DNA of 64,000 bases from Dipteris shenzhenensis (lineage: Eukaryota): the NCBI GenBank assembly GCA_047967505.1, contig CM106538.1; one strand, 5' to 3'. The notes beneath the pieces were generated by a model. The model was not told where the DNA came from and did no database searches. It was given only the letters and a program-made list of their open reading frames with translations. Made by a program: the position numbers and the translations under genes. Each line of letters begins with the position of its first letter. Position 1 is the stretch's first letter. Below, one piece after another: positions 10,409 through 40,130 of this stretch.

Positions 10409-11078
10409 ATGGAACAGAAGCAGGCTTTCCCGTCGACTCGTCAAGGCCAGATTTTACAGCGTCAGTCGCCAGCAAGAAAGCAAAATACTTCTTTGTACCG
10501 TGGGGTGCGTAAGCGTGCTTGGGGTAAGTGGGTATCTGAGATTCGTGTGCCCCGCACTAGATCTCGATTATGGTTGGGTTCTTATTTCACACCGGAAGCA
10601 GCGCGCTTTCGATACTGCTCTGCTATACCTCCGAGGACCGTCTGCACGGCTCAATTTTCCCCATTTACCCCCACAAACTGCATTCCATTCGGAACAGCTG
10701 TCGGCCCAGTTTGTACAAAGAGCTGCAATATGTGAAGGTAGATCTTACGATAGGATTTTCAGCAAACTCAGCGATACTACAGCAAGCACTGCTTCGAGCT
10801 CTGTCGTCAATTCAGCTGGCTCTGCAGCTTCTTGCTGTGTTCTCCATGAGGACAAAGATATGTTCAACGCTGGAAACTTTACTGGGCTCAGCACGAATTC
10901 AGTTCGTACTGCTTCCGGCTGTAGTACCAATTCATCTGGCATGCAACCCGCTTCTAGCTGTGTCCTCGACTACGATAAACTTAGTTTTAAGCCTGGGGAC
11001 TTCGCTGGGCTGGATGAGGCATTAGAGCAAATGTGTCCTAGCGCTAATATCCAACTTCAACGTACAAATCATCTATGA
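10409..11078 (+). pseudogene. AP2/ERF (DREB-like) transcription factor with a frameshift inside the AP2 domain
   Basis: [37 protein letters not shown] in one frame and [19 protein letters not shown] in another; shift at ~10600-10607. Confidence 0.85.
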
Positions 11079-11577
11079 ATCAGCATGGCATTATGCGGCT
11101 GGATGCAGCTCATCGTTCTTTGGAGGTGACAAACATTCAACAGCTCATACATTCAGGCAGTGGAAGGATAGGAATCAACATTTCTGTGGGAAGATCGATA
11201 TATGCTACCACATGTATTGTTGAGTATTTCTCCTCTTATGCAACTACAAAAACGCATGAGAACTTTGTCTTCGCATCATGTGTTCTGAGCTCTTCGGCAC
11301 TGCTCCCAAGTGTATTGAGATGGAATAATTTTCTCTTTTTGGTCCTGCAACGGTCCTAAGGGATGACTTGGTTAGTGAGTTGCTTATCATATCAGGCCCA
11401 TAGTTTTGAAGTTAGTTCATTTGGTCAATTTGACCTTGCAAATTATGGTTAGTATGAGGCTTAAATGTGGGTTAGTAGAAGTTTAAGGGCTTCTAATGTG
11501 TTTTGGGTTTAAGATTTTTGTTTCCTTGTAGAGCTTCCAAATGTTTTTTTGTCTTTTATCCTAAAGCTTTTGCCTTT

Positions 11578-12050: not shown

Positions 12051-12689
12051 TGGCAGAGAGTAAAATTTTTTTCAACTCTAGCCAAACATATCAACCCCAA
12101 GCATCAACCTTGGGTTACTACCTTAAGAAATTTTCTTTATTTCTTAAAAAGAAGCCACTTGATAAACAAATCAGGCTAGGTATTGGACACGAATGCATAG
12201 AGCTTGCAATTTTGACCATTTCACCTTTTAATAGAAGAGCGATTTGAGCTAACCATGAAAAGTTATGACTCGGGAAGAGTTTAGGGTTTAACCCTAAACC
12301 TACACCCATTTCCTATAAAACTCCACTCCACCCATTTAGGTTTAAGGTGTAGGTCTAACCCTAAACCTACACCCATGTCCTATAAAAACCCACTCCACCC
12401 CCTCAAACTTCTTCTTTTACATCTAGCCTCCATCCTCTTCCCCATTCCGAGCCCTACACAAGCCACTCCTCCCTCTCCATCGACCACCACCCTACTCCCA
12501 TCCTCCCTGTGCCCTACTCCCATACTCACACGGTGAGTTATTTTGAGCCCTTTGCGCTACAAGAGCATAGCCATCTACCCACCATCCATTCACTCTCAAT
12601 AATCCTGTTACATCGAGAAAGACTTGGAGAGCGTCTAGGTGACCATCTCTTCCTCCCTTTGGATTTTCGTCAAAGTTTTCCATTCGTCA

Positions 12690-13020
12690 AGTTTTCCCCT
12701 CCCCCTCCACCCCAACCACCCTCCACCTCTACCCCCCCCCCCCCCCCCCCTTCACCACCCCCTCCATTTCCTCCCCTCCCCTCAACCATCCCCCTCCATT
12801 TCCTCCCCCCTTCTCCCCTTTTTCCCCCATTCCCTCCATTTTCCCACCCCCCCTCCACACCCACACCCACACCCACCCCCCTCCCCCTCCACCCCCACAC
12901 CCCTATCCCTCCATCCCCTTCCCCCCACCCCTTCCATCTTCTCCATCCACCCCCTTTCCCCCCTCCTCCATCCCCTCGACCACCCCACCCCCTCCTCCAC
13001 CACCCCTCTAGCCCCCTTTC
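12690..13020. repeat. C-rich low-complexity tract (G-runs on minus strand)
   Basis: Runs of C separated by T or A; produces spurious Pro- and Gly-rich ORFs. Confidence 0.9.
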
Positions 13021-13022
13021 AT

Positions 13023-13168
13023 CAACTCCGTGTCTATTACTTTGTTGCGTCCTTTCCCTTAAGGCACAATAGAGGTCATCCTTAGGTCTTCATCATCTCT
13101 CCATAGTCGTGGGAGAGAGCTATCCACATCAACAAGAAACTTAGAAATATATACAAGTGACTCTTGTA
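13023..13168 (-). mobile_element. Short fragment of a CACTA transposase coding region
   Basis: Closely matches 49518-49663 inside the CACTA element in this window. Confidence 0.85.
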
Positions 13169-16067
13169 GTTCAAATCCCTCAGTTAGACTTAAAGAACAT
13201 TCACACCAACCTTAAGACCAAGGATCCCCCCCCTCCCCACAAAAAAGGCCCATTTTACCCCTACTTCAACCCTTCATATCTCACCCGCTTGGGACCCAAA
13301 TTGGACCCCATTTGAACCATGATTTCACACATGGAAACACCATGCTATGGGGCATTTCTCTAGCCCATTGCACACCATTCTAGCATCCCTATCACTCGCT
13401 CATTTGTGCCCCCATGTGGGCCTCCTTTCACTTTAATTCGCTTTTATATTTCTGCTGCTATGACCTTCGATTGAGGATCCCTCTGCACCGGCACATTTCC
13501 TTACATGTGGGATAATCCTAGGCACATTATTAACATGACGGTCCCTACAACACTAACACATCGCTAACCCTCCTAACATAAGTACATCAACACTTGCACT
13601 TGCGGTGGCAAATACACCCTCTATAACTCTCGCCCACTCTGCATGTAGCTATGCTCTCGCAATGCCTCCAACTCCAACGCACACCAAATCCACATACAAC
13701 TCCGTTGCAACCACCACCTCTAATAATCCTCTATCTCGATTCCCCCCCTGAAATTCAAGAAATCCCTTTGACTCCTCCACGCCACAACATGGTTGGACGC
13801 CGTTGCTCGACAATGATGGGGATATTAACCTCAATGCGGAGGGTAACAATTTCTCAATCACAGAAATAATAACAATCTAGGCAGGCGCCCCTTAGGAGAA
13901 TTAGAACTTTCCAAATATAATGGTAGGGGAGATCCATCCCGTTTCCTCCAGCATTTTGATACTGCATGCCGAGCAAGTGAAGATCAATCCAATGAAACCA
14001 AGGTGGCCTGGTTTCCCATGGCCTTAACCGATGAAGCATCAAAATGGTACCTAATCCTCCTAGTGAAAGAGAGAGCCACATGGGACCTTCTTCAAATAGA
14101 ATTCAAGAGGCACTTTCAAATGGAGAGACTACAAGATGATCCCGCCCTCCAACTCAGCAAGATCGAACTAGGCCATCGAGAAGATGTACGCATGTATCTG
14201 GGCAAGATGAAAATATTAATTACCAAATGTGACCCACGCCTCGATGCAAAGTACCCCACGGCCTAGTTCATTGCAGGACTAAGGAAGAAAATCTGCAAGG
14301 ATATGAAAAAGATTAGCCACCGTTATGAAATGTTCAGTGCTGCTCATGTGACAGCCATTGACATCAAGGATGGCATGACTGACTCTGACACCAACAGTGA
14401 TGATGGAAGATCCAGTGCACGAGATAAGCACTCTAAAAAGGGCAAATCCAAGTCCACTACCAAAATGTCAAATGAAGATTGCCTAGAGGCCATGACCATG
14501 AAGCTTGAAAGAAGACATAATGCAAGCCATGGAACAGAAGCTTCACTTGTCTCAGCCACCACCTCAGACTTATCCACGATAAGAAAATGTATCATGCCCA
14601 CACTGCATGGCCAATCATACAACAAATGAGTACCCGGTCCTAAGAGCTAGAATCACTACACAAGCAAATCCACCGCCAAGGTTGTAGTGCCATATCTACA
14701 TTGTCGGTGGCCACGATGAAAACAGTTGCATCTTCAACATGTGCAACAACTCGCCTTGACCTCAACAATACCAATCAGCACCCATGCTAGTGTACAGGCA
14801 ATCGGCACTTGCACAAGCACCCCCAGCTCTGAGACTGAATCTTGTTCTTGTTCAGACACAAGTACCACAACTACTCAGGAATCCAAATCCACGACCATAT
14901 CCAAGAGCGCCAAATCCATCTCCTCAGGTAGTTCCCATACAACAACTACAAGCCAAGGAAGTAGATTCGCCATCCGAGTATGAAGCAGAGTACCCAGTGT
15001 ACTATATAGAAGGTGCAGAGGGTCTAATACCAGTCTATGCAAATCAAGTTCAACCCAATACAAATCAAGCACCAATCAAGTGCTACATTTATGGAGAAAA
15101 TCACTGGATAGTAGAGAGTCCTCATCATGGTAGTCCCACTACTTTCCAACCACTCTACAGAGATTGTGGCATCATGCATGTATGGATTGTCCCATGAAAA
15201 ATAAGGTCCAACAACAAACAGATGTTAAGCCTGACATCCCAATCCACATTATTGGGATGGACCATCAAAATCTGGGGCCGGCAAGTGTAATATCACAACC
15301 TGTGAATGTAATTACACACCAGCAGAAAGAGGCCACCAAGGACCCTAACATTCCAATTCAACCAAGACGATTTCTTAAAAAGATTGCACTACTGCCTCTA
15401 CCTCTACCAAGCAATGAGCAGCCAAGCTCATCCACATCAAATCTCGAGCCTCAAATAAAAGAAGCTCCATACCCAAATGCAGAAGTGGAGAAGGCTCATT
15501 TTCAGGCACTTCAACAATGGGTACAAAAGGAACAAGCTCAATTTGAGGATGAAAAACAAGCTCAAGATCCCATCCATGACTTGGCCCCATAGAGTATTCA
15601 TACTGTACTCGAGCTTCTGTTCCAACAACAGACTCCACAACATAATGTACCGCCACATCAACTTGAAGGAGCCACACTCTCCAACATCCTACATTGCCCT
15701 GTGTTAATTCCCATTGGAATCCTCCTACGGAATTGTCTCAATCTCTAGGAGAGTTTCAAAGGCTAGATTGAACTCACAAATCCCCCGCCACCTATGGACG
15801 ACATCGAAGATATCCCAGTAAGGATGGGTGAGAGAGATGACATATGCAACATTAATGTGCCTTTGATCCACAAGGCATATAATGAAGTCCAAGCTATAGT
15901 GGATGGTGGAGCAGGTGTAAATGTCCTGTCAAAGGAGCTCTACAATGAATGCGATCTCCCACCAATGCAAAAGGCTAATTTCAACATACGCCTTATCGAC
16001 GATTCATGGGCTAAACCCTTGGGAATAGTGAATGGTGTGTCAACAAAAGTCGCAAGAGTTCGCTTTT

Positions 16068-17481: not shown

Positions 17482-18958
17482 TTTTCCCTTCAATTCATAA
17501 TCTTAGATCTCTCCAAGAAATCCTATCAGATCTTATTGGGACATCCTTAGTTATGAGAAGCATCAGTCCTCCATGACTGGGGAACTGATAGACTGACAAT
17601 TCAAAATCACGACACCGCAGTCAAGGTGAATGTGGGGGCATAAGCTATAAAACCAATTGTGCTTAGAGCATTGGATAACATATCTTTAATGATGATCTCA
17701 AGCAAATCAGTTCCCCAGCAATAGCATGCCATAGCAGGCGATTCACAAAGCAATGTCAATAACTGGATACAAACATTTGCAACCATCGACAACTGCCATT
17801 CATTAGACCCCATCTTCTTGCAGACAGATGCCAAGGTGATACAGGTAGATCCTCAACTCACCAATGAGGAACCAATCGATCTAGAGGTGTCATTCTTTAT
17901 GGCTGACCTCGAATGGGATAATCAACCTGAAGAAGGCACCCATACAAATGATGACTCTTATTTTCCTTGGGACCTTGAAACTGATGCTGAGTGCTGAAAT
18001 TGAAGATCAAGTCTTTGATAATAATTTAGCCATTCTGCATGCCCTAATGGCAATCAAGCTCCCAAAAGTTGAACCTCCAAAGTTGAATAATAGTAGAAGA
18101 TCTCGCAAGAAAGTTGAAGGAGGAAATCACAAAAAAACCAAGGCCAAACACTTCAATGAATTCCAACAAGTCCAAACAAGGATCATCGAATTGTATCTTG
18201 CAAAGCCATCTCCCTCAAAATCAAAACCACCACCTCTTGAATGGTCTCCTGAGGGAGTGGAAGGAGTATGCACAGCAAATGAACCCTTGGGAACACCTTA
18301 CCAGTGGAAAAGTTACCCCGTAGTTCCCAATGTAAGAAGTTTCGAAAGTATAAACAACATGTGCGGATGAAGCTCAATCAAGAGACTTCAAAAAAAGAAG
18401 TAAAAAAGAGCCTAACAAATTGGTTAATGAAACTATGCCACCCAGTACACATGGCACATGTCAGGGTAGTTCAACACCATTAGAGGCTGATCTTCGAGAG
18501 GTGCCAAAATACTTCAAGAATTACATAAGTGGCAGTGTCCCCATAGCAATGCCAAGACCACTAAGAGAATCTGATGTCCAAGAAATCGATAGCATTGGAG
18601 AAACTCCAATCTATGAGGGACCGGGGAAAACTCAAACAATAAACCTCGCCCTTGAAGGGAGGAAGAAAAATTGGTATTCATTAGGAAATAGCTTCGACAG
18701 GAAGATGAAACCAAACTCAAAGCACCCCTAATGGAATACCGTGATTACCTAGCATGGGCATACAAAGAGATGAAAGGAATTTCACCAAACATGGCAGTAC
18801 ACATGATACCTATAAGGAAAGGTGCCCACCCTAAGGTGTGTGGACCTTATCGCACAAATCCTAAGTGTGGCACCATGGTTTATATGATGAGCTGGAAAAA
18901 TTCTTATATGCCAAATTTATCTATGAGATTGAGCACACTAATTGGGTTTCACACATAA

Positions 18959-18983
18959 GACCGTATTAGATAATTTGGGAAAA
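18959..18983 (+). repeat. Putative left terminal inverted repeat of a large DNA transposon
   Basis: GACCGTATTAGATAATTTGGGAAAA, same family as 6628-6652; begins where the Gypsy RT breaks off. Confidence 0.65.
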
Positions 18984-19870
18984 ACACAATTTCCAGAATG
19001 GCAGTTTTGGAAGAAATTGTAGCTCCCCTCAATGAAAAAACTGGAGAAATATGTGAAAATAGACTAGATAGCCATTCATGGTGTGAAATATCAACTACAT
19101 TCTCAAATAATAAATAGAATATCAGTGTCTAAACTACGTTATCATCAACAAAATAATGAACTTTGAAACCCATTTGAGTTAGATTCATCTCCTAAGTCAT
19201 AGTGATGTTCAAAAACACCTTCATAATAGCGAGTCTCTGGAATTTCCATTGATATTGAGACTCGTTTTTGTTGTGAGCATTCTCATTTTAAAATCTCCAA
19301 AACACCGTTTAAAAAATGTAGAGTGTAATTAATAACCATGAGTATTGCAATGAAAACGCACAGGCTCTTTAACTTAGTAAGATATGTAGTTGATGGAAAA
19401 TCAAGATATATAGTTGAGGAGAATGAATGCAAGTGTAGTTAATGGAAAATCAATGGGCAATGACAAGCATTTGATGTAATTTAGGTGGCAATGACAATCA
19501 TTTATTGTGCACTTTCAATGTTTAGACTGACCAGCATTATTGTAAAAGGATAACATTACATGTCATGTTGATTACTCATTGCAAAGTAAAAAAGTACACT
19601 TTAGGATGAAAACATAACAACTTGTTGATGCACCATTGAAATCCCTGAAATAAATCATGATTCCAAAGAAACTCTCAATTTGTAGCCCCAAAGAGAATGG
19701 CACCGGAAAGAATGGCATGAGAGACACTCCTTCAAAATACATTATGAATGTAGTTATGAACATATTTGCATATTATTCACACACAACAATTACGCACCAA
19801 TTTACATAGTTGGCAAGAAAGTAGTAATTCCCATAAGTAATGATTGTATAAAGAAATACAATGTTGTTAT

Positions 19871-20299
19871 TCAAAACTCATAGTCTGCAAATAGCTCCTC
19901 TCCTGCATGTATATCATCTATGGATTCAATAAAAATGTGACCATATTCTGCAATATCTATGTTCATCATGGGGTCATACCAAGGTGGAACATTAGGGGAA
20001 AATACATAACAAACATTTGGCTTTACATTGGTATTTCTATTGCTATTAATAAATCCTGCCTCATTGCCATATCGAACATCACCAACAATATGCACCATAT
20101 CCTTCATAGGGACAGTAGGATCCTGTTGGATAGAGTACTTCTTTAGCGTTGGATGAACTCTACATAATTCCTTCCAGTCTCTGTAGGAGTACTTGTCACC
20201 TCCATAATGGAGAATAGTAGTCCCTCTCTTGATGGAGTCATGCACAAACAAGCCCAAGCCAGCACCTGTAATGGTTGACTCATGCACCTCGAAAGCCAC
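19871..20299 (-). CDS. Minimal SET-domain protein (putative lysine methyltransferase); frame extends upstream through a TGA to ~20450
   Basis: ESTITGAGLGLF, GNEAGFINS...KPNV, DIHAGEELFADY; no pre-SET or post-SET cysteine clusters; intronless. Confidence 0.85.
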   Translation of the reverse strand: MAFEVHESTITGAGLGLFVHDSIKRGTTILHYGGDKYSYRDWKELCRVHPTLKKYSIQQDPTVPMKDMVHIVGDVRYGNEAGFINSNRNTNVKPNVCYVFSPNVPPWYDPMMNIDIAEYGHIFIESIDDIHAGEELFADYEF

Positions 20300-20494
20300 A
20301 TTTTTTATTCAGAACACTTCGTTGTTAGGGACAGGTAACTTTGGTGGTCCAAATGGATCTCGTTCTAGTATGTACCTACTCAAGCTTGATTTGAACGTAT
20401 ATCTATCTACATCACAAAAGACAAATTCAATTAGCTGCAACAACCGTTATATAGACTTGAGATAAAATCAAAAAACACTTTGACATATGTACCT

Positions 20495-21748
20495 TCATGA
20501 AATATACGCATTCTGTAGTCGGTTTATGTAGCCCTTAGCAATGTATTTCTTGATATAGCAACCTTTGTACCCTAGGTCTATAGCCAATTGAGAAACTTGC
20601 ATAGCATTCATGCTAGAGAGTTGCGGAGCATTCCTTAAAAGTCTTATTTGGGATGCATTAAGTTTAGGCACCTGGCCATCACCACCATGGGTTGCCCTAG
20701 GGTGTACACCCTTTGGTTCTGTATTACCACCTATATCCCTCTCTCTTAGTTCATCTGCAAGAGGAAGATTTCTTGTTTTATATTCCATTCTTGACCATGC
20801 ACGATTTTCCTCCCTCCATTCATCAATTACTTTCTGGACATCCTTATGCCCCTCCATCACAGGTAATTGTCCATACCGATTTGTCTCAATCATGCTGCGC
20901 ACATCTTTAGTTTCATCGACTTGTAGTAAGTACGGCATCAACTCTCTCAGTAGAATATTATCATCCTTGTCTTGTACATCAAACGTTGAAGGAAATATGC
21001 AATTTGATGGAGGGCTAATGCAAGCCTTGTATGGGGAGTCATCAACAAGGATTGTCCTTCTAGCATCACATCCAAATGCCTTTGAGATTTTTGCTAAGGG
21101 TTTGAACATTGCCTCAACACCAACCTTGTCAGACCTATTTATCCTCGTCTTACTGTAAGTGTAGCATCCTTGCTGAGACCATATAACAAAGAAAGGGAGG
21201 GTCTCATTTGCATAATTTTGTAGCTTTCCTACCATATCAAGTACGTTATACTCCATCGTAGTTGACCAAATACCTACATTAAATCTTTGTAGCAAGATTT
21301 TAAGAAATTCTATGCACCTAGGACGAACAACCATATAACTATTTTTGCCATGCATAATAGACGAATGTATTGGAGACTTGAATAGGCAGCGACTTAATAA
21401 TAGGCCATTCAAGTCTAATATGATTGTTAATCATGGCATATCCAAAGAAATTGTATGTGGATATAGATCCAAATTCTCCTTGAAGTTGCTGGCTTCTGAC
21501 TCATCCAAATTGTCAGGTGCTATGTTTTCATACATGTTTGCAACAACAATAAGATTATCTAGTCTTGTCCCCAATGTTGAGATAGTACGTTCATCCATGT
21601 TCTCTTCTAAAAGTATAGGATTCATGATATTCCTTGCAATTTTCTCCATTTTTGGGGTTATGTTTTCTTCTATACCTCCTGTATCCATCATGTAATTGAT
21701 AGTCCCCATTTTGGGTGGTATGTTGTCCTCTACATTTGATGTCTCCAT
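20495..21748 (-). pseudogene. FCP1/NIF-family HAD phosphatase-like gene with one in-frame TGA
   Basis: IILDLNGLL, VVRPRCIEFL, VGIWST, FKPL, TILVDDSPYKA; ORF 21431-21748 is in frame across a TGA (probably from CGA). Confidence 0.8.
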
Positions 21749-23329
21749 ATCCTTCCCTGTGGAAGTTGAGGAATATAGAAATATTTTGATTCGTTAGAGT
21801 GTATTCAACAATGTCAAAGCACAAAAGCATATGAAACTAATAAATAAAAATAAAGTACGAACATTATCCATCACCGTTCACTGATTCCATTGTCTTTTTG
21901 GGGAATGGCACTGGTGCCAATCTCTCTAAAGGTCAATTGAGAATGCAAATAGTGCAACCTTTCTCTCTGAACTCATAGAGAGAATGGCACTAGTGCCATT
22001 CTCGAACTCTCACAACCTATTGTCACAAATTTCTCTCAAACTCAATTTTTCCAAAAAAAAATTTAGAAAACAATCTATTACAAATTTCTCTCTCAACCTC
22101 AAAACCACTCAAACCTCCCTACCTATTACGTATGCAACAACTTCAATACAAAATTTAACCATAAATCTCTCCAAAAACTCTTCTCACGACACTTTATTAA
22201 TATGAGAAATCCATTTATAATATTTTTACTCAATATAATAAATTTTTATTAACTAATGTTAAAATATAATTTTGCTAAAAATTCATATTGTTAATCTATA
22301 AATTAATATAAATATTATATAATTATCATATAAATATATATATATATATATATATACATTAATTTAAAAAATATAACAATGAAAATATTTTTGAAAGCGA
22401 GTTCTTCTAGCATATGTGCTTTATCTAATACTTATTCTTTAAACAATGAAGAATTAATGAATGTATTTGTAAGGTAGTTCTTAATATGAAAAATCTCTAT
22501 AATATTCTTTCTACTATTAATTAGATATTAAATTTTAGTCTTAATAAAAATATACATTATTAACTTAAAAACTAATATAAATATAATGTAATTATTGTAT
22601 AAATTTAAATAAATATATAAATTATTAATATTATACATTAATAACATTTAAAATTATGTATATTATATACTAATAACCTTTAAATTTTAAAAAGGTAGTC
22701 AATCAAAGAATTGAATTAATTTAAAAAATAAGAAAATATTAAATTTTTCACGCGTGCTTTTAGCATGTATGCTTTTCTTCCATGTGTATAATACTTGTTA
22801 GTCGAAGAATGAAGAATTAGATAATGTATTTATAAGGAAAACCATAGAATCTAGAAGAGGTTTAGCATACTTGCTTATCTTTGTTATAGTATAATACTTT
22901 GTAAAAGCTTTAAGGCTTTGCACAAAACTATAGTATAATTAAATCCATATCATTTTTTTACTTTAGCAACCACCAGATATCCATGGTATGAATCCATGAT
23001 ATGGAATACATATTTCTTTTGAATATTTCTTATCACATACTTCTTTATTTCTTCCGATACACCATGCAACATGAATATAAGAAAATATAAATCGGTGTGC
23101 TTTTAGCCTATGTGCTTGTTCCTAATCAATAGGATACTTTGACTAGGTAGACTTATAATTACTTAAAGTAAAGCCTTTGTAAAGGATCATACCTAGTATT
23201 GGATATAAACAAAACACTTTGGAAAGCATATAATATATAGTCTATATATATCTAAACTAAATACTTTGGAATGCATATTTTATATAGTTTATATACCTTA
23301 GATCTTACACGCTAAATCTTAAATCCTAA

Positions 23330-23611
23330 AGTTCCCTAAATCTTAGGTTATACAATCTAAGCTCTTAAACTTATATAACAGTTCTAATCCCTAAACCCTA
23401 AACCTTAAACCCTAACCCCTATAGCTTAAATTCTAAAACCCAATTTCTAGATCCTAAACCCTAGATTCTAGACTCTAAGCTCATGACCTTATATACTAAA
23501 CCCTAAACCCTAAATGCTAAACCCTAAAATAATAATCATAAATCCTAAACCCCAAATGCTAAATCCTAAGTCCTTAACCCAAACCCTAAACCCTACATCC
23601 TAAACCCTAAA
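23330..23611 (+). repeat. Degenerate plant telomere-like (CCCTAAA)n tract, continued at 26245-26335
   Basis: Repeated AAACCCT and variants; interrupted by LTR element copy 2. Confidence 0.85.
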
Positions 23612-26244
23612 TGATGGGATATCTCAAGGTGTATGCCTCAGCACACCTTGGTTTCTATGTGTGAGTGCTAGAGGCACAGTTAGGTGCCCACAAGCACAAT
23701 TAGGTGGTGGAGAGCCACATAGGATGATTGAGAGAATCTAGGAGTAGATTGAGGAGATGATTGTAGAGCTCTGAAGTCATCAGTGATGTCAGTGAGCATG
23801 TATGAGGTGCCTACTTAAGGACCTCACTCTTCTTCATTCCATAATGCAAGTATTCTGAGTTTGTGTCCACTCTTTCCTTTCCTTTCAGTTTACCAACATG
23901 GTATCAGAGCCCTTTGATCCCCCTTGAGCCCATTTCTTCCACATCTTCTTCTTCTTCTTCATCTTCTTCTTTCCCATTTTCCTCCTTCTTCCCAAAATCT
24001 TTGAGAGCTTGGTTCTCTACCTACAAATGACCATTGCCCAAACCCTCTAAGCTGTAAACTTCTCTAGTATGGGCGAACTTCCACCTGCAAGCAATTGAAA
24101 AAAAAACGTCTCTGTTGGCTGCCATTCTCCAAACAGCGCATTTTCTCACCATTCTTCTATTGCTCAATACTCCTTGCCTGCTATGCCATTGCTTGAGCCC
24201 TCTTAGGAGTAGATGGGCGACCTCAAGACGAAGATTTTGAGTCATTTTCTAGCTCATTTGGTTCAGTAACGAAGGAGAAATTGTCAAAACTCAGGTTCAG
24301 CCTGCAGCAACTCCCTCGGGCAATAGCGCGCGCCATTTCGTCCAACCTCTGTGCTGGATCCTCTCTAGTATATGAGCTTTCTTTTGCTTCAGAAATCTTT
24401 CTTTTTCTTGCTTTGTAGAGTGAGCTACAAGCCCTCCTAGTTCAGCCTTTTGGTTTTGATAGTTTTGGACAAGTTTTTGAAGATGATGCTACATAAAATG
24501 CTACTCTAGCACTTCTGAGTTTTTGAAGTTTTCAATAGCATCAGTACAAGTGTGGCTTCAGTTTTTCTTTGAATTGCTAGACCTGGTTTTGATTGGAAAG
24601 TATTCATTTTAGCCACCTCTATGAAGCATGTAAGAAGAAGCATCATTGATTGAATATTGGTCACTAGCCTTTGCTACATCAAGTGCTTATATTTTGGAAG
24701 CCTTTCAGTTATTTTTTGCCTTGTAAGAGAGAAAGAAACTGCCCAATATCTAGGTTAGACCCTCTCATGGCTACCCTATTGAATCTAGAGAAGTTCAATG
24801 GAAAGGGCTTCCACACATGGCAGATGAAGGTGAAATTTGCATTGATGAGGGAGAATCTCTGGGGACTTGTCAAACCGACTCTAACCGCTTCTTCTACAGC
24901 CTCCAATGCTGGAGAATCCTCAACTCCGACACACCCGGTAAGAGATCCCGCTAGAGAGGAGAAAGCATATGGTATCATTGCTCTTGCTTTAGGAGATGAT
25001 TATATTCACCACATCTCTGACTTAGAGTCTCCTTCAGAAGCTTGACATGATTTTTGGTGCTAGCTCTCACATCTCTAAATTATCACTTAAAATCTCTTTC
25101 TTTGAATTGAAGATGGTTAGTGGCACTACTTTGGCAGCTCATGTCAACTAAATGCGGAGTCTTATGACTCAATTACCTTCTATCAACTCTCCTATTACTC
25201 CAGATGATGCTATGGTAGTGTTACTTAAGAGTATGCCTGAAGATTATGATCACATAGTTACCACTTTGAAAAATCTTCCTAATCCTAATCTTGAAGGTAT
25301 TATCTCTGCTCTCCAAGAAGAAGAAAGGCATATGGAGCTCAGGAAAGGCAATGACACTATTTATGCTGTAAAAGTCCATAAGGGCAAGAATACCCCTTGC
25401 AATCATTGTGGAAAGACAAATCACCTTTCAAAGAACTGCTTCAAAATTAACCCATGCAAACACTGTGGCAAGAACAACCATCATGAGAAGTTTTGCAGAG
25501 CCAAAGCAAAGATAGAAAATGCAAATCTACTTTCAGTTGATGAGCCTCCACAAGATGAGGCATCCTTTGAAGATTATGCATTTTAAATCATCTCTATGTA
25601 TGCTCCAGATCTCTCTATGTCAAGGTACTCAGCCTGGATAGTCCTCCAAAATGAATGAAATAAACTATTGTGTTTAGTGTGTTTTGTAAACACCTCTGGT
25701 CACCTTATGATGTAGGCCATGTGTATGTTTTGCTCCATGGTACCTCCTGCAGACATTGTGTGCATGTACATGCAGGGGAGATAACCATTGGAAGGTCTTT
25801 TTGTATCCCTTTTGTTTACCTTACACACAAGGGAACCCTTGCTAGCATGAGAACCTAGCCATAGATTTATCCTTGACCACCATGAGATGGCATGAGAAAC
25901 TATGAGACTAGATGTATCCTTGACATAGCCTGAGGCATTCCCTTGAGGGGGGGGTTTGATGGGATATCTCAAGGTGTATGCCTTAGGCACACCTTGGTTT
26001 CTATGTGAGAGTGCTAGAGGCATAGTTAGGTGCCCACAAGCACAGTTAGGTGGTGGAGAGCCACATAGGATGATTGAGAGAATCTAGGAGCAGATTGAGG
26101 AGATGATTGTGGAGCTCTGAAGTCATCAGTGATGTCAGTGAGCATGTATGAGGTGCCTACTTAAGGACCTCACTCTTCTTCATTCCATAATGCAAGTATT
26201 ATGAGTTTGTGTCCACTCTTTCCTTTCCTTTCAGTTTACCAACA
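23612..26244 (+). mobile_element. Non-autonomous gag-only LTR retroelement (TR-GAG type), copy 2
   Basis: LTRs 23612-23898 and 25957-26244, PBS 23899-23910, PPT, TSD CTAAA at 23607-23611 and 26245-26249. Confidence 0.95.
24767..25586 (+). pseudogene. gag: gag of copy 2, disrupted
   Basis: Homologous to 1701-2531; TGA at 25043-25045, a small deletion, and a further TAA near 25150. Confidence 0.9.
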
Positions 26245-26325
26245 CTAAAACCATAATCATAAACCCAAAACCCTAAACACTAAATCTTAAATCCTAAGCC
26301 CTAAATCCTTAACCCTAGATACTAA

Positions 26326-27318
26326 ACCCTAACCTTAAAATACAACCAAAATTTAATGATTTTTTTCAATTTATGCAATAGGTTTGATATATCCCCCAAC
26401 CTGTTGCAAGTGGAACACGTTAATGGTGCACACAACGTATTGCAAAAGTCAAGGAATTTTCTTGATTTGTGCAACAGTTTGGATATACCCCCCAACTTGT
26501 TGCTTGAGCAACAGGTTGGGGTGACCAGGTTGGATATACCCCCCAACCTGTTACTTGAGCAATAGGTTGGAGTCACCCCAACCGGTACATCCAACCTGTT
26601 GCACAAATCAAGAAAATTCTTAACTTGTGCAATAGGTTGGATATACCCCCCAACCTGTCGCTCAAGCAATAGGTTGGGGGTGCACGTGATCCCAACTTGT
26701 TGCTTGAGCAACAGGTTGGGGATAATATCCAACCTATTGCACAAATCAAGAAATTGCAGGTTGGGGGATATATCCAACCTATTGCACAAATCAAGAAATT
26801 TCTTGATTTGTGCAACAGGTTGGATATATCCCCCAACCTATTGCTCAAGCAATAGGTTGGGGGATATATCCAATGCACCCCCAACTATTGCTTGAGCAAC
26901 AGGTTGGTGGGTATATCCAACCTGTTGCACAAGTCAAGAATTTTCTTGATTTGTGCAACAGGTTGAATAGGTTGGATATACCCCCCAACCTGTTGCTCAA
27001 GCAATAGGTTGGGGGGTATATCCAACCTGTTGCACAAATCAAGAAAATTCCTTGATTTTTGCAATAGGTTGGGGATACACCCCCAACCTGTTTCTTGAGC
27101 AATAGGTTGGGGGATATATATTCCAACCTGTTCCACAAGTCAAGAAATTTCTTGTATATATCCAACTTGTTACACAAATCAAGAAATTTCTTGACTTGTG
27201 GAATAGGTTGGTGCACCCCCAACCTATTGCTTGAGTAACAGGTTGGGGGATATATCCAACCTGCTGCACAAATCAAAAAATTCATTAAATTTTGGTTGTA
27301 TTTTAGGGTTAGGGTTTA
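26326..27318. repeat. Fold-back array of nested palindromes
   Basis: Units CCAACCTGTTGCACAAATCAAGAAATTTCTTGATTTGTGCAACAGGTTGG and CCCCCAACCTATTGCTCAAGCAATAGGTTGGGGG; outer ends are inverted repeats of each other. Confidence 0.95.
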
Positions 27319-27520
27319 GGATTTTGGGCTTAGGGTTAAGGATTTAGGAATTAGGGTTTAGGATTTAGAGTTTATGGTTTAGGGTTTAGGGTTTAGGATT
27401 TTGTGTTTAGGAGTTTAGGATTTAGGGTTTAGGGATTAAATGTTTAAAGTTTAGGATTTACGATGGTTAAGATGTTTTGGTATTAATTGTTTAAAGTTTA
27501 GGATGTAGGGTTTAGGTTTA
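27300..27520 (+). repeat. Degenerate (TTTAGGG)n tract, inverted relative to 23330-26335
   Basis: Repeated TTTAGGG and TTTAGGA. Confidence 0.85.
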
Positions 27521-27614
27521 ATGCCTTCTTTGCTAGTTTTGATATAAAATTTATTAAGTAATAATAAGCTCAATGATTATTTATTGTGTCTTTTTTTGAG
27601 TTGCTAATCTATTT

Positions 27615-27860
27615 TTGTACATAAAACAAGTATGCACCCTAACAGAGGGTATGGATGTGGTGTTATACAAGAAGAATGAAGTGGTGGCTTTTAGACGAAT
27701 TCATAGTCTTGATCCTATGAATGTGTGTTATTTCCAACATTGTGGTGAGAGAAGATGTGTAGTGATAATCACCAACGTTGTAAATCCTGAAGTACATTTA
27801 AAATATCCACATGGAGACTTTGAAACATTGGGAGATATCTTACAATGTGACAATATTTGA
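27615..27860 (+). pseudogene. Fragment resembling a transposon-associated TNP1/DUF8039-like domain
   Basis: VVAFRRIHSLDP...VVIITNVVNPEVHLKYPHGDFETLGD pattern. Confidence 0.35.
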
Positions 27861-28285
27861 TATGCAAACTCATTTTGAGGGGGAAAAAGTAGAGATGTTA
27901 TCTTGCTCTGGAGAAGTTTAGAAATTGGCAACTTTATGGGCTATGCTCAGAGTTTTCTCTATATAGTAGAGATAATTAAGTTGGTTAGTGTAGTGTCATT
28001 CAAAATGCAATGGATAGTACTTCACATCTGGACGTCCATAATACTACGTCTCATCTACAAGTTCATAGTACTAAATGGGGGTTAGCTTTCTTGAAATCAA
28101 GTTTGCCCAAGACAATTTCCTTCAATGTCATGGAAGACACAACAAAATATTGTCAGAAGAAAAGGACTATAACACAAATGGGATCCAAATTTATAAGAAG
28201 CTATAGTAGTGATCAAGAGTATCATAGTGGCATGCTCACACGTATTGAGGACATTATAATGACAGATGTTGATGCAGAAAAGTTC

Positions 28286-28535
28286 TCTTGTGTTGCAAGT
28301 GACTCAAATATACTCACTAGTATAAAAGACTTGTCTTGTGTTGCAAGTGACTCGAACAGGCTCACTGGTATAGAAGACTTGTCCTATGTTGCAAGTGACT
28401 CGAACAGGCTCACTGGTATAGAAGACTTATCTTGTGTTGCAAGTGACTCGAACAAGCTCACTGGTATAGAAGACTTATCTTGTGTTGCAAGTGACTCAAA
28501 CATGCTTACTGATATAGAAGACTTGTCTTGTGTTG
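28286..28535 (+). repeat. 48-bp tandem repeat x5 (in frame SCVASDSNRLTGIEDL)
   Basis: Direct observation within ORF 28010-28654. Confidence 0.9.
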
Positions 28536-28860
28536 AGAATAATAAGATGGGACCACAAAGAAAAATACATGCAAAGATCGATGGGATAAGTGATGCAATA
28601 ATAGGAATTGATGATATTAGTGACAATGATCATGATATTACCACTCGAATGTAGGGCAAAGGGGGCAGAGAATCTGAGACTTGTCATGTTGTTCGTAATA
28701 TTGTTGCTAGCATGCCAGAGAATATAGATGGGAGAATCTTGAGTTACGAAGGAGAAAGAGTTCAACCACAAAATTCAAGAGGCATTGGCAACAAATTGAC
28801 ATCAATAAACATGTCTACCAGATTGCCATTTCCAAGATATTATAAGGCGCTTTATGCTCT

Positions 28861-30087
28861 ATGCTGGTTGGTTTGAAAATATTTGAAGAAGTGGAAGTTG
28901 GATTTCTTCTTTTTAGCCATACACATGAAGACATAGATCAAATCTTCAGTGTTATCTCTAGTGAGTTGAAGTCAATGGATGTTTTGACAATAGAGGATAT
29001 GCTATTTCAAATTCGGAAAAAATTTGATGGGTCTTGTAAGGAAGAATTAGAAGTGGATATCTTAGAGAGGATGGTAGATTGGAGAGCATTCATAGAGCCA
29101 CATTTACAAGTAGGAGATGATGCCCTAATAGGACACACAAATCCACACTACTTTTGGTTTCACATGCATAACAATATTCCGGTGATGCAATGGAAGCACT
29201 ACTCATCAGTAGATGGAGATCATTTATGGAGTGAGTCATCTGCTTTATTACAACAAATAATTCCATTGGAGGAAACTAGATTTGTTCTTGCAAAAAACAA
29301 ATCACTTGACATAGATGAAATGAAAGGCTTGAAAACCTTCATTAAACATCTTCAAAGTATGATGCAAAAATATCATGAGCAATCAACTAAGAATTTGGAG
29401 ACAATTAAGTCAACTAAAGCACTTATCCAATCTTTAGAAAGACAAGAAAACTTAATGAGCATTGAATATTGTGAATCCTTTTGGCCAGAACAAGCTAGAT
29501 CACTAAGTTTTCCTTTGGATATAAATATGTTAGTAGATATGGAGGAAGCAGAGGAATGCCTTATACCTCAAAAATATTGTGGCAAGAAGGGAGACAAACC
29601 CTTACCAGAGTTTATACCATCTAATGAGATTGAAGAGGGTCTATTTGTTACAATTTGGGCATCTGATCCAAGTTCAAAGTTGGATGACCAAGGTGGCCCA
29701 ATTTGGGTTGCAAAGGTTGCTAAGATAGAAAGGGATGATAAGGGAACTCCTATAACATTCACAGCTTTATGGTATGAACCAAAGCCATTGAAAAATCTCT
29801 CGAGAACATATACAATAAGACAACTCTATGAGGGATGCTTGCAAAAGAAACGTGAATGGGTTCCAAATAATGAGGGATTAACAGAGGTGGAAGTTAGTAG
29901 CATTATTCATTGTTGGAAATCGAGGACACGAAGTTTTAAAAAGAAGCATGGATACAATGTTGAAAAATGTATCACAATCCCTGATCCAAGTCATGTCCAT
30001 ATTAAACATCATTTGGCAAGACTTGACCCATCAAGCACAAATACATTACATGAATCTGATGACTCTGAACAAGATTCATATGCATAA
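28861..30087 (+). pseudogene. DUF7869/Sola1-like DDD transposase, C-terminal half
   Basis: IFEEVEVGFLLFSHTHEDIDQIFS matches the FLxVGHTHEDIDQxF motif; N-terminal catalytic part not found. Confidence 0.7.
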
Positions 30088-30559
30088 GATAATGTTTTGT
30101 ATGCTTTTTTCCATACAAATGATGTATCTATACAACACCAATAAGATAATGTATTGTATGCTTTGTTTTTCAAAAAAAGGTTGTATCTATACACCACTTA
30201 TATATTGAATTCAAAAAACTCTTTTTTTTCAAAAAAATGGTGTATCTATACACCACTTATATGTTGAATTCAACAAACTCTTTTCATATGATGTCATATT
30301 TTCACTTTATTAGCATAGTGTTAAAATTGAACTAGAGTTAGGAGACTAATATTATTATTATTATAGTTATTGGATGGGGGCACCATGCACAAGTTTGGGA
30401 ATTATAGCTTCATTGAGGCATATGTTTTTTTATTAGAGGTCACCACTTGACTTTTTAGCTTAATAAGGCCATATTTGTATATAAGTGACCCATTTAGTGC
30501 TCTAAAAAACCCAATTTTTGAGCTCACGAAGTGAAATTGAGTGGAGAGGATATGCTCCA

Positions 30560-30606
30560 AAAAAAAGTCCAAACCAGGAGAGAAAGTCCAAAATTTTTGA
30601 ATAGTG
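30560..30606 (-). repeat. Candidate right terminus (…AATAGTG) after the DUF7869 gene
   Basis: Reverse complement CACTATTCAAAAATTTTGGA is loosely similar to the 18959 and 6652 termini, with a doubled AAGTCCAAA motif; no TSD match. Confidence 0.3.
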
Positions 30607-30649
30607 TGTTATATGCTTGTTTTAGATTCAAGCAATTACTACACATAGG

Positions 30650-32220
30650 ATGAAGCAATCATCCTGGAATGATTCTAATGCAGAATTATCGAGTTGTGCC
30701 ATCGTGACTATTGACAAGACATCTATGAAGAGACTCTTTGATGAAGCAGATTATAGAGATCAGAAAAGAGTGAAGTTAGAATCCCCGCAAGAAGAGAGTC
30801 CAAGGTTACCACACCAAAGTGCTCAGATAGATTGAGTGTTGAGATCTAGTACCCACCTACTGAAAGATCTTTGCTCATTCACGAAGTGTACTTATCTATC
30901 GAGAATAGCATACTCGAAGGAAAAGTAATGGTTAGGTATCCAAGGACCTTGAAATTAGATTTAACCAATAGAGAGGGGGGCGGTTGTATTACTCTCGCAA
31001 TAGGTGAGTTGTACTATGCACACATCATTAAGACATTGAATATAGGAGACTACATCAAGGTTACAAATTTTCCATTCTATAGCAAAAACACCCAAAATGA
31101 TGAACATTCGATTATACTTTGGTTTTCAATCCTTCGACTAGGGTCAAAGGTTCTAAACCATTTATAGTCCACTCAATTTTGGTTCCGACAACTAGCATTT
31201 CCAAGTACAAAGAAGACTGTAAGGACCTAATGAATAAAGGATCAGCCAACTATTTGCCATTAGCTACGATCGCGGTGGTAGTAATTAAGCTTGGAAGCTC
31301 CATGCATCAAATGGATGACTTAATCATTGGCGATAGTAATTAAGCTTGGAAGCTTGGAAGCTCCATGCATCAAATGGATGACTTAATTGTCAGCGACGGT
31401 GAAAATGCGGATGACCTTATAATGGTAAAGTGTCGTTGCACAGTGTTAAATTGTGAATGTAATGTGCGACATCAATCATGACAAACCTTTTATTATTAAA
31501 GTAAGGAAATTTTTATCCCTTTGCCATTGTATTTGACTTTTTGGAGTTCAACTGGTGCTCAGACTATGTAAAGATCATGGATAGGTTCAAGGTGGGGCCA
31601 GGTTCTGCTTTTCATTCTAAGAAACATAGGAGCAAATAAGAACAGTCAGCCGATCACACTGAACATGCTAAACCTGACTATCTTGGCTCCTACTCGTGTT
31701 CCATTAATCTCGGTAAAGCTTGCGCAAGTCTTTCATGTACACATCCAACAAATTGGTTATGGAAATCAGGTAACATTCAGTGGCTATAGAAAGTATTGAT
31801 TGGATTTAAAACAAAGGATTTTATCAGTAGTTAACACTCATTGCATTGTGCTTGTAGATAAGCAGTGTTCTTGCTATCATGGGGCTGAACTCAACCTTGT
31901 ACAAGCCTATGTGTTCTTTATGCAAAGAGGGGGAGAATTCAAACGAAAACACTATAGCCCATTGTCTAACATGCGACCGAATCACCATTCTAGAGAAGAT
32001 TCCTAAATTCAAGGGAATTATCATAAGTTTAGATGGTGCAAATATAGAGGTTGTATTGAAGAATATATGGGTGGACACAAGGCCTTAGGTTTGCCTCGTC
32101 GTTATAATTGCTTGAAGACAACACAAAGTTCCTAAAGTCAAAAATGTTTGACCATAGAATCAGGAACGTTCCTAGTTAATATGCATTGTCTAGTTGCAGG
32201 CTTCATTCCTTTGAGGGGTA
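30650..32220 (+). pseudogene. Degenerate RPA70-like OB-fold gene (Helitron cargo)
   Basis: ITLAIGE...LNIGDYIKVTNF and zinc ribbon YKPMCSLC...HCLTCD; next to Helitron Rep. Confidence 0.45.
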
Positions 32221-32649
32221 ATGATGTAGTAAGCGGTGATCGAGTACTATGAAACCTACAATAGAGTCAGCAGTTGTTTATTGCTCTATCGTTCTTTTTC
32301 GAAGTCCACAGCCATCATATTTCTTAATGTCACTCCACTATACAGTGCGACACCGTCAACTCCATTTGCACCAGCAACCAGAGCAAAGTAGTAGCCTGAT
32401 GTTGCCCACTCTTTTGTTGTTTTTCAAAGTTCAAAGCCATAAGATTTCTTACTGTCCCCCCATTGTACAAGGAAAGATCATCAACTTTGTTTGTTTGCAA
32501 CATAGTAGTAGCTTGATGCTATTCAGTTGTAGTATGTTTTGTTCCATAGTTCAATTTTGGAGCTTCAAGACAAGAACATCGAGGAGTTGAATCTCCCTAC
32601 ACTTTTCTTTGGTGCAGATAGATATATTCAAAATCCCAGACTAACATGC

Positions 32650-33870
32650 CAAGACATTGCAAAGTGGGAATGAAGACATGCATGCCTCAAGTTCTCACAG
32701 AATATACCAAACCTTTTATTCAAATCAATTAAGGTCCTCATCAATCAAGTAATGCAATCCATTTGGGTGCAGTTATGCAAAGGTGCATTCCAAAACAGAA
32801 TAATATGCGCAAAAGATGTTACGAACAATACCAACATTGAATCCATTTTGAAGTCCAAATTTGGGTACAGGGACTTTGAAAAAAAGGTGCGTACTTCTCC
32901 AGACCACAAAGAGAAATTCAAGAAAGATGCATTCGTGATGATGAGACAGTTAGGACCTCCAACCCTATTCATGACATTATCGTGTATAGACAAACTATAG
33001 GAACCTTTGACAAAATATTTGCACAACATGTACTCAACCAACAACAAAGAACACATGGCACAAGAAATCATGAGGATTGAAATAAGGGAATTGATAAGAG
33101 ATACTCCTACAATTTGTGTGAGGTATTACACTCACAAACTCCAACGATTCCTCAATATGATAATGAAGGATGATTAATTACTTGGAAATGTACTCAATTA
33201 GTTCTTTGTCTCACAAACTTCCAAAGTAGAGGAAGCCAACTTGAACTTGGTAGCATGTGGATACAAGATACACTGACGTATGGTATTCATGACACTTATG
33301 ACATCACATCTTTCATTGACAAGTACATAAAGTTGACAAGAACCTTATAGCACCAAATATCAAGGACATTCAAACACATAGACATATATCTACATGTAGT
33401 AAAAAGAAAAGCAACGTCTACAGATTCCACTACCCTAAACCTCCACTACATGAAAACACGATTCTCACACCTCTACAAGACAATGATCTACATGTCTACA
33501 AATAAATATACATGATGGTGTTCCACATCTACATAGCATAGAACACAAAACAAATATGACTTTCTTCGAGTGGATCAACAATATTGGAGTAGACATATCA
33601 ACATACATACTAGCACTTTGATCACAAATAGGAAAACCAACTATATTCTTGAAAAGAATACTAAAGGCCATTTTCACGAATGCTTTTAATCCAAAAATTA
33701 CCTTCTTATAGCAATCAAAAATGGGCATACAATACATTAAATGGATCCATACTCAACCACAACATACTACATTGCATACATCACAAAAGTGGATGACACA
33801 ATATCAAGTAGTCTCCAACATACAATTAAAACTTGCATGCAAGATAACAATAGTACTACGATAGACTACA
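32650..33870 (+). mobile_element. Helitron Rep (HUH) domain remnant, Helitron2/Helentron-like
   Basis: VRTSPDH...MMRQLGPPTLFMTLS, FQSRGS...W, QTHRH..TC.KK...RFHYPKPP, DPY...YIAYITK; broken by stops. Confidence 0.85.
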
Positions 33871-39900: not shown

Positions 39901-40130
39901 AATGTCGGAGCTTTTTGGTAGAAAAAAACATCCAAGAGAGGTCGCACTTACGAACTGCTACATAAGAGTCCACAAACATGTACTCTCATCTAGTAAGAGA
40001 TATTAAGTTCCAGATGCAACCTGTGCCACAATGAAAGAAGGGCAAGAGTGTCTTCAAATTGGATTTAGACACCCATGAGCATATCTTGGGGTGTGTTCTA
40101 GTGGCAGTGGATGAGGATGACTGAGATAGT
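36930..40130 (+). pseudogene. Sola2-type DDD transposase, degenerate, with intervening repeat-rich intron
   Basis: IDFVENYSF...DEIQSAHW, WLDGATSQFKS, FFGSSHGKGEHDG; upstream ENMRVSPNRKD. Confidence 0.75.
37400..38090. repeat. Dispersed and tandem short repeats (AAACCAGCCCAGTGGTTG core) with a ~190-bp duplication
   Basis: Repeated CCAGTGGTTG / CCGGTGGTTG; 37441-~37545 recurs at 37613-~37722. Confidence 0.8.

Follow-up and report, generated by a model that had tools for sequence, protein, structure and literature searches.

The window analysed here, a stretch of 64,000 nucleotides from Dipteris shenzhenensis (GenBank assembly GCA_047967505.1, contig CM106538.1), contains two segments that are probably related defective copies of one transposon family. 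The first, copy 1, extends from the window start to 6654 and holds part of a ParB-like gene, a palindromic minisatellite array, the tail of a transposase, and a right terminus. The second, copy 2, extends from 18957 to ~30610 and holds a left terminus, SET and NIF genes, a spacer, an array, and an internally deleted transposase of the DUF7869 family. Their features are given below, with coordinates and strand; LTR stands for long terminal repeat, TSD for target-site duplication, TIR for terminal inverted repeat, RT for reverse transcriptase, and ORF for open reading frame.

47-564, minus: 3' part of the ParB-like gene, copy 1; colinear with contigs L003 and L007; the gene continues beyond the window start
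558-3188, plus: nested gag-only Copia-type LTR element, copy 1; TSD TTGAA; splits the ParB-like gene
3187-3866, minus: 5' part of the ParB-like gene, copy 1; colinear with L003 657-1379
4049-5406, unstranded: palindromic minisatellite, copy 1; unit core AGATTTGGCCGTGCGGCCAAATCT
5742-6050, plus: remnant of the last ~70 transposase residues, with stop codon, copy 1; found with the tail profile
6233-6259, minus: subterminal repeat of the terminal motif (CACCATTTTAG...), 393 bp inward of the copy 1 right end
6628-6654, minus: right terminus (TIR), copy 1; Gypsy RT similarity starts at ~6655-6658
18957-18983, plus: left terminus (TIR), copy 2; starts (AA)GACCGTATTAG, directly after the last Gypsy RT residue at 18957
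19303-19320, plus: subterminal repeat of the terminal motif (CACCGTTTA...), 344 bp inward of the left end; motif match only
19871-20347, minus: small SET-domain gene; ORF 19871-20308, with similarity to the SET gene of L004 reaching 20347
20495-21793, minus: NIF/FCP1-like gene with DLNG motif (Pfam NIF); pseudogene
21902-23380, unstranded: degenerate spacer, copy 2; 20-bp palindromes at 21903-22003, then DNA of 28% GC
23384-23612, unstranded: degenerate (CCCTAAA)n array, resuming at 26245-26339 past the nested LTR element
23613-26244, plus: nested gag-only Copia-type LTR element, copy 2; TSD CTAAA, inside the CCCTAAA array; not part of the transposon
26340-27300, unstranded: palindromic (fold-back) minisatellite, copy 2, between accessory arm and transposase arm
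27302-27540, unstranded: degenerate (TTTAGGG)n array, in the orientation opposite to 23384-23612 and 26245-26339
27600-27857, plus: transposase N-terminus, ~65-80 residues, with ATG at 27652; found with family profiles
27858-28845, unstranded: filler of 988 bp replacing ~600 residues of the transposase core; includes a 48-bp x 5.2 tandem array at 28286-28535
28846-30087, plus: C-terminal 413 residues of the transposase; DUF7869 profile positions 79-190 with HTHEDIDQ, plus conserved tail
30161-30284, unstranded: 59-bp repeat x 2.1; holds AAATGGTG (reverse complement CACCATTT), a terminal-motif-like palindrome
30587-30610, minus: candidate degenerate right terminus, copy 2; weak, 18/24 to the copy 1 right end

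The transposase is best represented in copy 2. The ORF at 28846-30087, which a sequence-only reading of this DNA had assigned to DUF7869 by its HTHEDIDQ motif (as 28861-30087), does match DUF7869 (PF25273), at 89.5 bits against a cut-off of 26 (E 2.7e-25) and at profile positions 79-190 of 192 only. An exhaustive search yielded 570 relatives at E<=1e-3, among them proteins of 1,000-1,250 residues that align over the whole 413-residue ORF, and family profiles match it at E 1e-74 to 1e-89. Full-length relatives score 138-207 bits against DUF7869. Three aspartates, D378, D460, and D502 in P0006 numbering, are invariant in 31 long members, with D502 lying within GHTHEDID. In an AlphaFold2 (AF2) model of P0006 (pLDDT 73.6), residues ~350-535 align to the catalytic cores of retroviral integrases and mariner/Metnase with Z 8.0-9.1 and a root-mean-square deviation of 2.6-3.5 over ~130-170 residues; among the 50 matches listed, all 46 with Z>=8 are integrases or transposases. 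Because the core aligns to these catalytic domains and the D..D..D residues are invariant, the DUF7869 family is, as judged from a modelled structure, an RNase H-like DDD transposase. Pfam names no function for the domain, and a literature search on DUF7869 and PF25273 found no papers.

Neither copy retains an intact catalytic triad. In copy 2, the ORF at 27600-27857 is recognized as the family N-terminus by three of four full-length profiles (E 1.2e-8, 3e-8, and 2.8e-5), the P0015 profile giving no match, and profiles from the four full-length members detect nothing for the ~600 residues between this piece and the C-terminal one. Since the two family ends are found at 27600 and 28846 without the core between them, the gene has suffered an internal deletion; profile positions ~96 to ~700 are missing, and with them the first and second catalytic Asp, the third being kept. 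In copy 1, the tail was sought with a 32-sequence profile covering the 114 residues at the C-terminal end of the family, in which the seed is the only sequence from the window. It matches the ORF at 5742-6047 at E 3e-4 among 1557 window ORFs, colinearly with profile positions 35-111, and the runner-up ORF reaches E 0.22. This comparison had been fixed beforehand, and it bears out the earlier suggestion that the first segment holds a fragment resembling the transposase C-terminus. The likeness is detected by the tail profile only: BLASTP of 5742-6050 against the 28846 ORF found nothing, and full-length family profiles give E 0.037 to 8.5 there. The right terminus of copy 1 lies 602 bp past the stop codon of this remnant. 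Another ORF, at 15134-15589, was considered as a transposase piece and rejected, as one member matched it at E 0.001 but the profiles gave E 2.9-4.7.

The opposite strand of copy 2 carries the SET and FCP1-like genes that had been read there, and both are recognized by Pfam. The SET ORF (19871-20308) matches PF00856 at E 2.6e-10, and the SET gene of contig L004 has a tblastn match to the window at E 2.4e-30 that reaches 20347. At 20495-21430 (-), NIF (PF03031) is found at E 1.8e-18, with 67.2 bits against a cut-off of 21.8. The gene has 41 homologues. Where homologues have M, I, or V, the window has an in-frame stop (21431-21433); thus, the NIF gene of copy 2 is a pseudogene. NIF/FCP1 phosphatases canonically carry a DxDx(T/V) catalytic motif. 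The window gene has DLNG (21413-21402) and does not fit the canonical motif; D, L, N, and G are invariant in an alignment of 23 sequences, and DLNG is also present in the angiosperm relatives shown. By its sequence, the plant DLNG NIF subfamily may consist of inactive or altered enzymes.

The accessory gene of copy 1 had been called ParB-like. As a gene it is real and conserved, with tblastn E 1e-19 to 9e-23 against L003 and L007, and it remains colinear with L003 across the nested LTR element (L003 657-1379 with 3821-3187, and L003 1365-1895 with 564-47). The ParB fold is putative: Pfam gives nothing at E<=0.01, with DUF6551 at E 0.013 (15.4 bits against a cut-off of 26.8); sequence and profile searches of PDB return nothing relevant; and Foldseek finds nothing for the AF2 model (pLDDT 36.4). 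An Atlas feature search places the ORF near a DUF3723 cluster (0.94) and DUF6551 (0.90), to be taken as a lead only. In copy 2, the spacer at 21902-23380 occupies the place that an ORF of ~510 residues and the ParB-like gene have in L003, L004, and L007; no remnant of either was found in it.

These contigs come from a search with a profile of 23 NIF homologues, which gave 26 loci in metagenome contigs. Seven of them are close to the window gene (36-44% identity over the whole protein), on contigs of 3.0-7.6 kb and one of 1.5 kb. They are referred to as L001-L007.

L003, one strand: array 86-238, ParB-like 462-1925, ORF502 1900-3405, NIF 5060-6112
L004, one strand: ParB-like (3' part) 125-424, ORF519 321-1877, NIF 3569-4606, SET 4998-5573 (Pfam E 4.3e-9)
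L006, one strand: ORF597 71-1861, NIF 3161-3862
L007, one strand: palindromic array 1-~900, ParB-like 964-2475 (503 residues), ORF520 2564-4126, NIF 5924-7111
L001 and L002: one complete NIF gene, flanked on either side by 0.7-1.3 kb; no further module genes
L005 (1.5 kb): part of NIF only

In four of the seven (L003, L004, L006, and L007), the accessory genes are syntenic. They form a module on one strand in the order palindromic array, ParB-like gene, ORF of ~510 residues, NIF, SET, the arrays lying directly upstream of the ParB-like gene in L003 and L007. The ~510-residue protein belongs to no Pfam family, and its best PDB match has E 0.075. The module frames are long and open in all four contigs. 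The proportion of nonsynonymous differences is below that of synonymous ones (pN < pS) in 23/23 module gene pairs, and the ratio of nonsynonymous to synonymous divergence (dN/dS) is 0.10-0.37 in the 10 pairs with estimable, unsaturated dS. As far as such sequence comparisons can tell, the module genes are under purifying selection, and these ratios together with the open frames argue that the module is not decaying captured DNA. Between ORF520 and NIF, L007 also holds a 131-bp repeat (4593-4847) whose palindrome GGCTCGAACCTAAGTTCAACC resembles the array unit upstream of its ParB-like gene; the window palindromes at 21903-22003 lie at the matching place, upstream of NIF. A tblastx match of L007 289-372 to window 5989-6072 lies in the L007 minisatellite and was discarded as spurious.

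The two segments share a terminus. The sequence-only reading had noted a 22/25 match between 18959-18983 (+) and the reverse complement of 6628-6652 and had taken the two, which face outward, for ends of different copies. The match was re-derived, and local alignment with the flanking bases extends it to 24/27 (18957-18983 against 6628-6654), a score reached by 0/200 shuffles of the two ~500-bp end regions. A degenerate 19-mer of the terminus has only these 2 sites in the window against 0.14 expected. Past ~27 nt, no similarity between the end regions was found. The same reading had each terminus abutting a broken Gypsy RT, which was checked with P0157, a Gypsy RT reference found via the 6646 ORF. 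Its residues 191-350 align to 6658-7330 (E 2e-29 and 4e-24), and Pfam finds RT_RNaseH_2 (7046-7267) and RVT_3 (7388-7669) beyond the copy 1 terminus; residues 16-41 align to 18880-18957, weakly (E 0.9). As the alignment starts at 6658 on one side and ends at 18957 on the other, both termini stand within 3 bp of a Gypsy RT break, and a terminus match that is unremarkable window-wide gains weight from this placement. The possibility that Gypsy RT runs on across both termini was dropped, since a two-sequence RT profile gave E 5 (6253-6426) and E 22 (21844-21975) and tblastn just E 0.9 for 21853-21894.

A third copy of the terminus lies in L003 at 7284-7308 on the minus strand, with 21/25 identity to one window terminus and 18/25 to the other. 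It is the best site in the 32.9 kb of L001-L007, scanned on both strands, and 0/40 shuffles of these contigs reach 21. It stands ~1.2 kb 3' of NIF, reads inward in the same way as 18959 in the window, and is followed by a CCHC zinc-knuckle (gag) ORF; the ParB-like gene and a palindromic array are on the same contig. Recurrence of the terminus beside cargo outside the window, one part of the check proposed in advance, was thus observed. In a three-way alignment, 18/23 positions are invariant, from the CC of the SWCC start through GGGAA, unlike the NIF proteins of these copies, which are only ~40% identical. The exact 21-nt terminus has 0 matches in metagenome_contigs.

The terminal motif also recurs inside the ends. 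A terminal 12-mer occurs 7 times in the window against 2.18 expected, a number reached by 0/100 shuffles, one of the seven being subterminal, at 6248. With a looser 8-mer, sites at 19303 and 30235 are also found, and the palindrome of 30161-30284 has a counterpart in copy 1 at 6251-6275 (score reached by 4/200 shuffles).

A palindromic minisatellite had been reported in both segments, and the two arrays, at 4049-5406 and ~26340-27300, are indeed there. The array unit of L003, ATTTGGCCATATGGCCA, resembles that of copy 1, ATTTGGCCGTGCGGCCAAAT. Around the fold-back minisatellite of copy 2, the telomere-type arrays face outward, (CCCTAAA)n...(TTTAGGG)n, like two ends of linear DNA; at the matching place in copy 1 is an A/T-rich array of 7-bp period (5458-5564). 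The nested LTR elements are ~2.6 kb long, with Retrotran_gag_2, a zinc knuckle, TGGTATCAGAGCC after the 5' LTR, and perfect 5-bp TSDs, and their LTR pairs are 96.6% and 97.2% identical. They are the only DNA-level repeat common to both segments and have a depth of 100-380 in sequencing run X1, as expected of a high-copy element. Being two separate insertions of such an element, they are no evidence for common descent of the segments.

Taken together, these data make it probable, with good confidence, that two defective copies of a single family of large cut-and-paste DNA transposons lie in the window, each within a different old Gypsy element. Because the contigs hold array, ParB-like gene, ORF of ~510 residues, NIF, and SET in one order, the two segments can be read as complementary pieces of a single architecture, and the NIF and SET genes of copy 1 would lie left of the window. 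The sequence-only reading's proposal of one family of cargo-carrying elements is thus strengthened by the L003 terminus, the tail profile, and the module synteny in four contigs. Its shared architecture holds in that both segments have the module, the array, and DUF7869 on the opposite strand; it had overlooked the nested LTR elements and the defects of the copies, and its right end at 30606 is weak. Its view that the segments carry different cargo gives way to different parts of one module. As read from their sequences, both copies are dead: copy 2 has the deleted transposase, the NIF stop, and no ParB-like gene or ~510-residue ORF, and copy 1 has only the last ~70 transposase codons.

Sequencing depth was taken from run X1 (1.95 Mb of contigs in total); the matching runs were three of DNA, with small shares (0.16, 0.15, and 0.07), and none of RNA was listed. 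Contigs of X1 with 92-98% identity to the window reach a depth of 7.0-8.4 over 19238-21531 and of 5.5-9.9 over 27281-30051, and none covers 30576 onward, which fits a repeat holding both arms and ending near 30600. A join of 19296 to 21903 in X2 was set aside, as its support is a single contig whose short side has 23 letters.

Several observations weigh against this interpretation. Both termini, the module, and an intact DUF7869 gene occur together in no single sequence. Each terminus observed comes from a different copy: copy 2 provides a left end, copy 1 a right end, and L003 a left-type end. The 18/24 match proposed as the copy 2 right end is equalled by 68/962 random 401-bp windows, and the left end (18940-19400) matches the reverse complement of 30090-30700 no better than chance (88/200 shuffles). 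After 30610, Gypsy RT does not visibly resume, and a Helitron-like region follows. The four bases outside the three termini (ATAA, TGAA, and CTAA) show no readable TSD and are not the AWWT of Sola1 transposons; a candidate pair for copy 2, ACAT / ATAT, rests on the weak right end. The X1 contigs begin at 19238 rather than 18959, although gaps of that size also occur inside the unit. Foldseek on the P0006 model gives no match at E<=0.001. L001 and L002 hold no other module gene in their flanks, so NIF is not always found within a full module. Finally, DUF7869 similarity is absent from the seven closest contigs; this is uninformative rather than contrary, because the contigs end in or before the array.

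Some of these points also suit the notion of independent nested insertions, in which the terminus would go with the SET, NIF, and ParB-like genes in a single mobile unit (or a host gene cluster), with unrelated DUF7869 remnants placed beside it twice by chance. The region is indeed rich in nested elements (Gypsy, Helitron, and CACTA pieces besides the two LTR insertions), no right terminus past the transposase of copy 2 is convincing, and DUF7869 is joined to the module on none of the contigs from outside the window. We nevertheless consider it improbable. In copy 1, the array is followed by the transposase tail and, 602 bp on, by the terminus; the tail thus stands between module and terminus, inside the bounded unit. 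Both segments repeat the order of module, palindromic array, and opposite-strand DUF7869, though only the nested LTR elements are shared as DNA, and the depth and identity of X1 contigs are alike over the SET/NIF and transposase parts.

Small SET, ParB-like, and CTD-phosphatase-like genes (CTD, C-terminal domain) are common in Nucleocytoviricota. The segments might accordingly be fragments of an endogenous large DNA virus or virus-like element and not transposon cargo; the Atlas feature search puts the SET ORF nearest mostly Nucleocytoviricota clusters (score 0.96), and in L003, L004, and L007 the module genes are long intronless ORFs on one strand. This origin is very unlikely, however, as the NIF protein falls in the plant DLNG subfamily common to angiosperm proteins, the unit lies within retroelements and is closed by a short terminus that three copies have conserved, and a DDD transposase adjoins the module twice. 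Moreover, there is no capsid, polymerase, or packaging gene among the ORFs examined (only some were scanned), and the transposase profile finds no relative in viral_contigs. That the 25-nt match is a coincidence between unrelated junk beside broken Gypsy elements is scarcely credible: Markov shuffles do produce 0.3 such inverted matches per window (at least one in 5/20), ~5 other distant window pairs score equally, and the similarity ends after ~27 nt, but both copies adjoin Gypsy RT breaks, the third copy in L003 has the predicted place and orientation and contradicts chance, and the tail remnant and module synteny tie the segments together.

For the transposon family favoured here, the intact element would have the order terminus, SET, NIF, (ORF510, ParB-like), array, DUF7869 transposase, terminus, bounded by TIRs of ~25-27 bp with the consensus (AA)SWCCRTATTAGRKAATTTGGGAA. 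Its length is put at ~12-13 kb, because the distance from terminus to array in L003 is ~7.2 kb, the array adds ~1-1.4 kb, and the transposase arm ~4.2 kb; the earlier figure of about 9 kb or more was probably too low. One arm would encode the DUF7869 transposase, of 1,000-1,250 residues, with an RNase H-like core, D..D..D, and the third Asp in GHTHEDID. The other, on the opposite strand, would encode the ParB-like protein, the ~510-residue protein of no assigned family, the DLNG NIF/FCP1-like protein, and the small SET protein, and a fast-evolving palindromic minisatellite would divide the two. The transposase presumably binds the termini and the subterminal CACCRT motifs for transposition, and for the two window copies any movement would have to be in trans. 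The module may serve the element, for example by acting on chromatin or transcription at or around it, rather than being a passively captured host fragment. A more far-reaching idea, which we regard as unlikely, is that the minisatellite is a parS-like cognate binding array of the ParB-like protein and forms, with the SET and phosphatase-like proteins, the element's own system for DNA tethering and chromatin or transcription modification. Such a system would act on the state of the element's own locus or of a copy that has been excised, and it would be an accessory system of plasmid or virus style within a plant DDD transposon. Array and protein would then co-evolve, as the array unit differs in every subfamily seen.

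The rest of the window contains pieces of Copia, Gypsy, CACTA, and Helitron-like elements as well as TTTAGGG-type repeats, and for one of its genes the nearest named relative is a protein of the fern Adiantum nelumboides. Directly right of copy 2 is the Helitron-like region (30626-33500, plus), with Helitron_like_N at 32674-33000 (E 9.6e-6, 26.4 bits, below the cut-off of 28.9). An AP2-domain ORF (10403-10735, Pfam E 5e-8) has two colinear inverted matches (scores 39-40) on either side, 9450-9543 and 11336-11435. A direct repeat of 146 bp and 94.5% identity links 13023-13168, which adjoins a C-rich low-complexity tract (12666-13010), with 49518-49663. Two long ORFs at 38398-39921 (plus; 218 and 182 residues) look transposase-like by eye and contain ..VIDFVENYSFQKQDEIQSAHW..; Pfam has no match for the ORFs at 38398 (E<=10) and 39373 (E<=5). 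Pieces of a CACTA-type transposase occupy 49239-51481 on the minus strand, with Transposase_21 (E 2.8e-47) and DUF4218 (E 2.8e-22). Finally, an unbroken 765-residue armadillo-repeat ORF (57161-59458, minus; Arm, E 7.5e-25) in a locally GC-rich stretch is probably a host gene.

In the usual view, a plant cut-and-paste transposon codes for its transposase and one helper protein at most, and any other gene content is captured DNA in decay. The present DUF7869 family, plausibly of Sola1 type, appears to maintain the order of its four module genes and palindromic array, with purifying selection acting on the genes. Such a set beside a palindromic array, with a histone-methyltransferase-like and a CTD-phosphatase-like protein among its products, is unusual for transposons of this kind. 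If complete copies bear this out, DUF7869, so far a Pfam domain of unknown function, would gain a function and an element structure, plants would provide an example of a transposon with a conserved accessory gene set, and transposon-borne chromatin or transcription modifiers would become directly testable. In the annotation of fern-like genomes, NIF, SET, and ParB-like gene models of this kind probably belong to transposons and not to the host.

Among known systems, Sola1 was reportedly described by Bao and co-workers in 2009 as a superfamily of eukaryotic DDD cut-and-paste transposons. Insect Sola1 TIRs start GGACCGTTTATT / GACCATTTATT (PMC3845634, table 1), and the same paper gives a 4-bp TSD with AWWT preference and describes miniature inverted-repeat transposable elements along with autonomous ones; the published Sola1 elements considered here measure 0.2-2.8 kb and have at most a transposase gene. 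A 'Physcomitrella Sola1' is listed for plants (PMC9033089, table 1). Compared by eye with that one insect table, the window termini, GACCGTATTAG / CACCATATTAG, agree in the first 6 bases and TTA. Sola1 is plausibly the likeliest superfamily for this DUF7869 family, because the enzyme is of DDD type, its termini start GACCGT / CACCAT as in the insect table, and Sola1 is listed for Physcomitrella. Both have a large DDD-type transposase, short TIRs whose starts look alike by eye, non-autonomous derivatives by internal deletion, and a presence in non-seed plants. The window family differs in its four-gene accessory module and palindromic minisatellite, set against the 0.2-2.8 kb of those published elements, and the AWWT TSD was not found at the three termini, no complete copy being among them. 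With other Pfam DUF7869 (PF25273) proteins, the window ORF shares a score above the cut-off and the GHTHEDID motif, and it differs in having only profile positions 79-190, without the upstream D..D part. In the literature searched, no Sola1 or DUF7869 element is described as having such a module.

Fungal Starships are large elements with a tyrosine recombinase and DUF3723 accessory genes. A conserved multi-gene accessory set is common to them and the window family, and the Atlas placement of the ParB-like ORF near a DUF3723 cluster is a lead only. Starships are far larger and use a tyrosine recombinase, whereas the window family has a DDD transposase and an estimated ~12-13 kb. Gene-carrying DNA transposons are also well known in plants, namely Pack-MULEs, gene-capturing CACTA elements, and Helitrons, and Pack-type captures are usually decaying fragments. 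Like them, the window family is a TIR element holding host-like gene families (NIF and SET). Unlike Pack-type captures, it keeps whole genes, their order, and open frames over saturated synonymous divergence, with dN/dS staying at 0.10-0.37, and in these comparisons the module genes appear to behave like accessory genes encoded by the element itself.

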